From Candidatus Baldrarchaeum yapensis (lineage in GTDB: Archaea > Asgardarchaeota > Baldrarchaeia > Baldrarchaeales > Baldrarchaeaceae): 32,000 bases of DNA. Position 1 is the first letter of the stretch; every line of letters begins with the position of its first letter. The notes under the pieces are model-generated. The model was given only the letters and a program-made list of their open reading frames with translations. It ran no database searches and was not told where the DNA came from. The stretch lies in NCBI GenBank assembly GCA_016840465.1, contig JAEOSH010000011.1, positions 18,118 through 50,117 of the forward strand, read 5' to 3'. Positions 727-17,797 of this stretch are shown piece by piece. Made by a program: the position numbers and the translations under genes.

Positions 727-787
727 GGCGATGATGAAAATTCCTTTAGCGTACGGTACGGATGAAGACCGACAGGCGGTCTGAGCC
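727..787 (+). ncRNA. Box C/D methylation guide sRNA (double guide)
   Basis: Terminal stem GGC(727-729)/GCC(785-787); C box ATGATGA 731-737; degenerate D' CGTA 750-753; C' ATGAAGA 762-768; D box CTGA 781-784. Both 11-12 nt guides are antisense to conserved SSU rRNA motifs. Confidence 0.72.
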
Positions 788-17600: not shown

Positions 17601-17641
17601 CCTGGTCGGGCCGCCGGGATTCGAACCCGGGACCTGGCGGT

Positions 17642-17658
17642 ATCTGTCCGAGCAGGGG
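17642..17658 (-). other. tRNA intron 2 (17 nt, canonical 37/38)
   Basis: CCCCTGCTCGGACAGAT. After intron 1 is removed it forms a BHB: central helix CUGU/ACAG, bulges A36-G37-C and A-U-A38. Confidence 0.78.
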
Positions 17659-17660
17659 CT

Positions 17661-17707
17661 ATTGCTCCTTGGGACCCTCTCTCACACCACATCAAGGGTC
17701 CCAAGGT
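17661..17707 (-). other. tRNA intron 1 (47 nt, non-canonical 35/36)
   Basis: BHB made of upper helix GGGC/GCCC, bulge A-U-A, central helix GGCU/AGCA (one G.A mismatch), bulge G34-U35-A, and a perfect 12-bp lower helix CCTTGGGACCCT/AGGGTCCCAAGG. Confidence 0.75.
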
Positions 17708-17797
17708 ACAGCCGCCCGCTCTGGCCAGGCTGAGCTACGGCCCGGGAGGATTTTCTTTTCTCTTCAGTTCCATCCTTATCTTTACATTAGTGTTGGG

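Follow-up and report, generated by a model that had tools for sequence, protein, structure and literature searches.

The window analysed here, a stretch of 32,000 nucleotides, belongs to an assembly of 2,267,786 bases in 100 contigs with a GC content of 45.9%. Near its start, on the + strand at 726-788 and between two open reading frames, lies a box C/D sRNA of about 61 nt with two 12-nt guides. It is flanked by a PAC2 gene (minus strand, starting at 436) and a Roadblock/LC7 gene. The features of this locus are:

696-701, + strand: TATA-like element; CTTAT precedes the stem by 30-31 nt in the window as well as in its orthologue on contig L193
726-729, + strand: 5' arm of the terminal stem (UGGC), pairing with 785-788 in a 4-bp stem
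730-732, + strand: bulge of the canonical K-turn formed by box C with box D
731-737, + strand: box C, AUGAUGA, canonical and invariant in the alignment of homologues
738-749, + strand: D' guide, 12 nt; predicted target A915 by the N+5 rule
750-753, + strand: box D', CGUA, non-canonical and without GA; the same in L193
754-761, + strand: loop
762-768, + strand: box C', AUGAAGA; the same in L193
769-780, + strand: D guide, 12 nt; predicted target C1402 by the N+5 rule, with a look-alike target at C882
781-784, + strand: box D, CUGA
785-788, + strand: 3' arm of the terminal stem (GCCA)
816-1196, + strand: Roadblock/LC7 gene downstream of the sRNA, preceded by a Shine-Dalgarno-like GGGTGA at 804-809; the same arrangement in L193

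The position of the TATA-like element, about 30 nt upstream, makes it the probable promoter of the sRNA itself, which probably sits in the leader of a Roadblock/LC7 transcript with which it would be co-transcribed. A tblastn scan for Roadblock gave no match. The metagenome contig L193 carries a syntenic orthologue of the locus, including a PAC2 gene 79% identical to that of the window and the start of the downstream gene; its sRNA has boxes and guides identical to those of the window and differs in the loop and flanks, in keeping with the original identification of the element as a C/D sRNA. The host genome encodes fibrillarin, Nop5 and L7Ae-family genes, and further unannotated C/D sRNAs are found on its contigs C1, C60, C68 and C72; that at C68:39171 has a perfect D' guide ahead of a degenerate D' box.

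A strict four-box pattern recovers 13 matches in the host genome, while the reversed genome gives none and triplet shuffles give 0-1, and hence the element is not a chance occurrence. Its terminal boxes, C (RUGAUGA) and D (CUGA), are present, the stem is short and the geometry is that of a K-turn. The complete C/D'/C'/D architecture described by the sequence-only reading has every box at the place claimed for it, but that reading missed that the D' box, CGUA, is non-canonical. In the putative internal K-loop box C' is good, and the D' box, in spite of lacking GA, is conserved and stands in register with the canonical boxes of homologues, in which the same position holds CAGA, CGGA, GGGA or CUGA. 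The Rfam families sR1 and sR39 align across the full element through the boxes only (E-values 0.04 and 0.09), scoring 23 bits against gathering thresholds of 45 and 50, and their guides differ, so that the element belongs to neither. The folding z-score is 0.29, as expected. Together with parts of boxes C' and D, the D guide is able to form a self-complementary hairpin of 6 bp (766-782), which is kept in L193. A hairpin of CGUA with UACG was ruled out as a true structure, as it is not kept there. On the features that can be tested from sequence the element is a real archaeal box C/D sRNA of the long-range double-guide type, and its expression is predicted.

The host 16S rRNA lies on contig C59 without its first ~700 nt, and the target scan was confined to the portion 3' of that gap. 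Positions are given in E. coli numbering, anchored on what we take to be the conserved 907-926 and 1391-1407 motifs and in agreement with the offsets of PMC4644070. Against this rRNA the D' guide pairs with 911-921 (C59:225-235) through 9 Watson-Crick and 2 G-U pairs, one of the latter at guide position -3, where the host has G913, and the N+5 rule points to A915 (C59:229). Only 4 of 400 shuffled guides score as well. This is its best site among the host rRNAs and tRNAs, with no better target in tRNA, the ITS or 23S. At the high temperature of 70 C this duplex is weak (-3.9). A letter-for-letter identical guide precedes a CAGA box in the homologue L309, which fixes the D' register of the window, and a near-identical D' guide in Methanopyrus kandleri sR70, an RNA seen by RNA-seq, has been assigned to A897, the equivalent of E. 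coli A915 (PMC4644070). A loose pattern for A915 guides in Asgard genomes was swamped by coding matches. The proposed A915 target thus holds against both the host's own 16S and comparative data; given the CGUA box, methylation of A915 by the D' side is favoured by a small margin.

The D guide pairs with 16S 1398-1408 (C59:714-724) through 10 Watson-Crick pairs, with N+5 at C1402 (C59:718). It was suggested earlier that the A at guide position -7 might be compensated by U1404; the host instead has C1404, giving a true A-C mismatch that costs the duplex about 6 kcal/mol and breaks the strict rule of nine contiguous pairs. The same region (C59:710-724) has U1397 and G1408. The base facing the mismatched guide position, C1404, is modified in several prokaryotes, with hm5C1378 tentatively placed in P. 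abyssi (PMC7005279). Both guides have a Watson-Crick pair at N+5. Taken alone the D pairing is not significant, since 62 of 400 shuffles do as well, and two other sites compete in energy. One is a look-alike at 878-885, with target C882 (C59:196) only 33 nt from A915, for which the duplex energy is -18.1 kcal/mol as against -17.4 kcal/mol at the 1402 site, which amounts to equal stability; the sequence-only reading had named C1402, which stands, and overlooked this local site. The other is a 23S site (C59 ~1362-1373) of similar energy, which we rejected for want of comparative support.

What separates C1402 from C882 is the behaviour of guide positions left free in our comparison. When positions -1 to -6 alone were specified, pattern searches gave C/D-shaped elements in Asgard archaea, Micrarchaeota, Methanofastidiosa, Undinarchaeota and others, yielding 29 distinct archaeal guides. 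Among these, position -9 is A in 21 and G in 7, and position -10 is G in 26, which fits U1406 and C1407 and not G886 and G887; none of the 29 is of the 882 type. Because these free positions fit the 1402 site across archaea, C1402 is favoured over C882. Position -11 likewise tracks base 1408 in the two named cases and the host in which it was checked, being U in M. kandleri sR114 (A1408) and C in Sulfolobus acidocaldarius sR122 and the host (G1408). Cm at the 1402 equivalent has been measured in P. abyssi (Cm1376), yeast and human (PMC7005279). In Thermococcales guides to C1402 or A915 were not found with the patterns used, though Cm1376 exists there. With the -7 mismatch taken into account, methylation of C1402 by the D guide appears reasonably probable, somewhat more so than that of A915.

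The two target sites, separated by 489 nt, emerge from the base of helix 28 on its 5' and 3' sides, and the host strands between them pair, bearing out the earlier statement that targets about 490 nt apart flank this helix. Since the sites are single strands leaving its base, formation of helix 28 would allow a single RNP to hold the two together. Pairing of a 912-915 guide with a 1402 guide in one sRNA occurs in six patchily distributed lineages, namely Asgard, Korarchaeum, a Thermoprotei family, two DPANN groups and Methanopyrus (sR114). Besides the window and L193, it was recovered in Ca. Korarchaeum cryptofilum and related contigs (the L184 family, L190 and L200); in five genomes of one Thermoprotei family (L189/G906 and four relatives); in register 914 in a group akin to Undinarchaeales-type genomes (L135, L191, L202, L299); in register 913 in a small DPANN genome (L143); and in M. 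kandleri sR114 in swapped order, with U912 on the D and C1402 on the D' side. The linked sRNAs as a whole thus span registers 912, 913, 914 and 915. In four Thermoprotei genomes (L308, L309, L311, L312) the 1402 guide has an A at +5, opposite C1402, and the 915 link is kept; such a guide can pair but, by the N+5 rule, cannot methylate. Strict patterns find the linked form in 1 of 400 Asgard and 1 of 401 Thermoproteota genomes.

In the predictions of Dennis et al. (PMC4644070), 9 of 735 guide interactions target 912-915. Against a background of 1.2-1.8%, a 912-915 partner in 3 of 23 other lineage-level C1402 sRNAs, which were hand-counted and hand-grouped from searches not aimed at the link and whose kin are not independent, gives a binomial P of 0.003-0.008, rising to 0.03 with a 3% background. 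The earlier suggestion of bridging is helped by the reappearance of this guide pair in archaea far removed from the host, but not by the nearest relatives, which use other partners: in two members of the same order, as in many Sulfolobales-type sRNAs, the C1402 guide is joined to one for 16S ~1236, and elsewhere the partner is 1533 (Micrarchaeota), helix 44 or 23S sites. C1402 with 16S ~1236 is itself a second recurring pair, seen in either order in same-order Asgard and many Thermoproteota (L026, L027, L204-L211). A group of Korarchaeum homologues (L184, L187, L192, L195-L197, L199, L201) has a CCCC/GGGG stem in place of the C'/D' K-loop together with a perfect C1402 guide.

We therefore read the element as a methylation-guide sRNA that works with L7Ae, Nop5 and fibrillarin, its D guide directed to C1402 and its D' guide to A915, in one RNP able to hold both sites (probability about 0.68). 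That a single RNP does bind both sites at once, and in doing so positions the central pseudoknot together with helix 28 and the upper end of helix 44 as the 30S subunit assembles, has in our judgement slightly less than an even chance. The recurrence of the pair across phyla may, on comparative grounds, reflect a pairing or chaperone role across helix 28. Under this reading the sRNA would most likely be cut from the leader of the Roadblock transcript, and L7Ae would bind its K-turn and probably the variant K-loop. The D' guide would pair first with nascent 16S 911-921, beside the central pseudoknot, and the D guide would follow at 1398-1408 after synthesis of the head domain, with helix 28 passing across the C/D end of the RNP. 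C1402, in the P site, and A915 would then be 2'-O-methylated, the timing and simultaneous binding being conjectural, and after release helices 2 and 44 would be free to form. It is conceivable, though we regard it as unlikely, that this sRNA represents, within Asgard, an ancient design shared across phyla which clamps the two strands flanking helix 28, on the central pseudoknot side and at the decoding strand, in 30S assembly. Such a design would have been selected for pairing over the methyl marks, with a decoding duplex weakened for release, and its D guide might pass from 878-885 to 1398-1408 as transcription proceeds.

Three other accounts bear on this reading. In the least probable of them, which we consider improbable, the RNA would be a local double guide whose D guide acts on 878-885 and clamps helix 27, alone or besides its action on C1402. 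At the C882 site the guide can form an unbroken run of seven Watson-Crick pairs, in which the -7 A meets U884, and one further G-U pair, and about half of archaeal sRNAs use two sites less than 100 nt apart (PMC4644070, PMC6009581). Against it, positions -9 and -10 mismatch G886 and G887 and yet are conserved as A and G across archaea; the Dennis et al. predictions contain no C882-equivalent target (PMC4644070), and the A at -7 is found both in guides that have a 915 partner and in guides that do not, most linked sRNAs lacking it. A rather less remote account, still doubtful, holds that the RNA methylates at a single site: only the D side would be catalytic, CGUA and box C' would assemble no second fibrillarin, and the D' guide would be a pairing-only anchor compensating the weak D duplex. 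The absence of GA from D' in the window and L193, the Korarchaeum stem and the CCUA that takes the place of D' in L200 point in this direction, whereas the register of 12 nt is retained, D' boxes close to canonical occur in other homologues, and the host sRNA on C68 likewise combines its perfect D' guide with a degenerate box. Moreover, CGUA and AUGAAGA could form G-A, A-U, A-G and G-C pairs as in variant K-turns.

The strongest of the three, although it too is unlikely, regards the two guides as independent occupants of a scaffold shared through ancestry or guide shuffling, with one site bound at a time and no bridging. It would account for the wide variation in C1402-guide partners, even inside the order of the host, and it fits both the recurrence of the 1236 pairing and the status of 912-915 as a hotspot in its own right (9 guides in 7 species). 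It is harder to reconcile with a linkage that is kept despite the shift of register from 912 to 915, the swapped order and the lost +5 pair, or with the enrichment of 912-915 partners among C1402 sRNAs over background. The long-range double guide to C1402 and A915 thus remains our preferred reading; if there is no bridging, the element is an ordinary unannotated guide.

Cm1402, guides to the A915 region and long-range double guides are all already known, and the 912-915 plus 1402 pair across phyla was not found in the earlier open-access literature examined. Nanoarchaeum equitans sR17 and sR15 and Pyrobaculum calidifontis sR56 and sR53 likewise use two far-apart 16S sites that are adjacent around helix 28 (Dennis et al. 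2015, PMC4644070, Table 3; Lui et al. 2018, PMC6009581). A chaperone role has been proposed for these RNAs, which are restricted to a species or genus, whereas the present pair spans phyla. M. kandleri sR70, with a D' guide like that of the window, differs in having a local partner (G886), and sR114, with U912 and C1402-fitting guides and detection by RNA-seq, differs in its order and in that its C1402 guide is listed without prediction (PMC4644070, Additional file 1). The chaperone role of archaeal double-guide sRNAs has so far been proposed from such single-species cases; occurrence of the pair in Asgard, TACK, DPANN and Methanopyrus, with tolerance of a lost methylation register, supplies a natural series in which pairing could be separated from methylation.

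RsmI gave no match in the host genome (96% complete), and the sRNA is the likely source of Cm1402 in this Asgard archaeon. Eukaryotes also direct the mark by guides, presumably snR70 for yeast Cm1639 and U43 for human Cm1703, and we know of no 915 guide on either. These marks are at the same nucleotide, as is the 2'-O-methyl of bacterial m4Cm1402 (PMC7005279, Table 4). In bacteria RsmI serves here as a stand-alone enzyme.

Imperfect C1402 guides predominate. None of the 29 guides is a perfect complement; their defects are an A at -7, a U at -8, both, or a bulge. The -7 A-C mismatch is common to many archaeal C1402 guides, and those of Thermoproteota mostly have the U at -8. The generalisation that a C1402 guide is never perfect was rejected, as perfect cores occur in Korarchaeum, L200, L288, L289 and L299. 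Pyrobaculum sR25 and Thermoproteus sR35 also carry imperfect guides to 1398-1408, with the mismatch at +5 and a partner near 1362, and S. acidocaldarius sR122, listed as an orphan, has a G-U at -8 where the window has its mismatch at -7. The D' guides of M. kandleri sR114 and S. acidocaldarius sR122 (PMC4644070, Additional file 1; see also L212) were published without prediction because their C1402 duplexes are imperfect, each fitting with one G-U pair. We reassign both to C1402, an assignment absent from the earlier open-access literature examined, and imperfect duplexes explain why guides for the near-universal Cm1402 have been listed as orphans. The -7 mismatch may have been selected for easier release from the decoding strand.

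Records labelled Sulfurovum, Deferrimicrobium and Halobacteria (L135, accession JAIVYC010000003.1, L066 and L123) contain C/D sRNAs of a typical archaeal kind with matches in other groups of archaea, and their labels or bins are probably wrong. Elsewhere in the window, 17606-17744 on the minus strand holds a tRNA-Tyr(GUA) interrupted by an intron of some 67 nt, in which a perfect stem of 11 bp is accompanied by a second, small hairpin.
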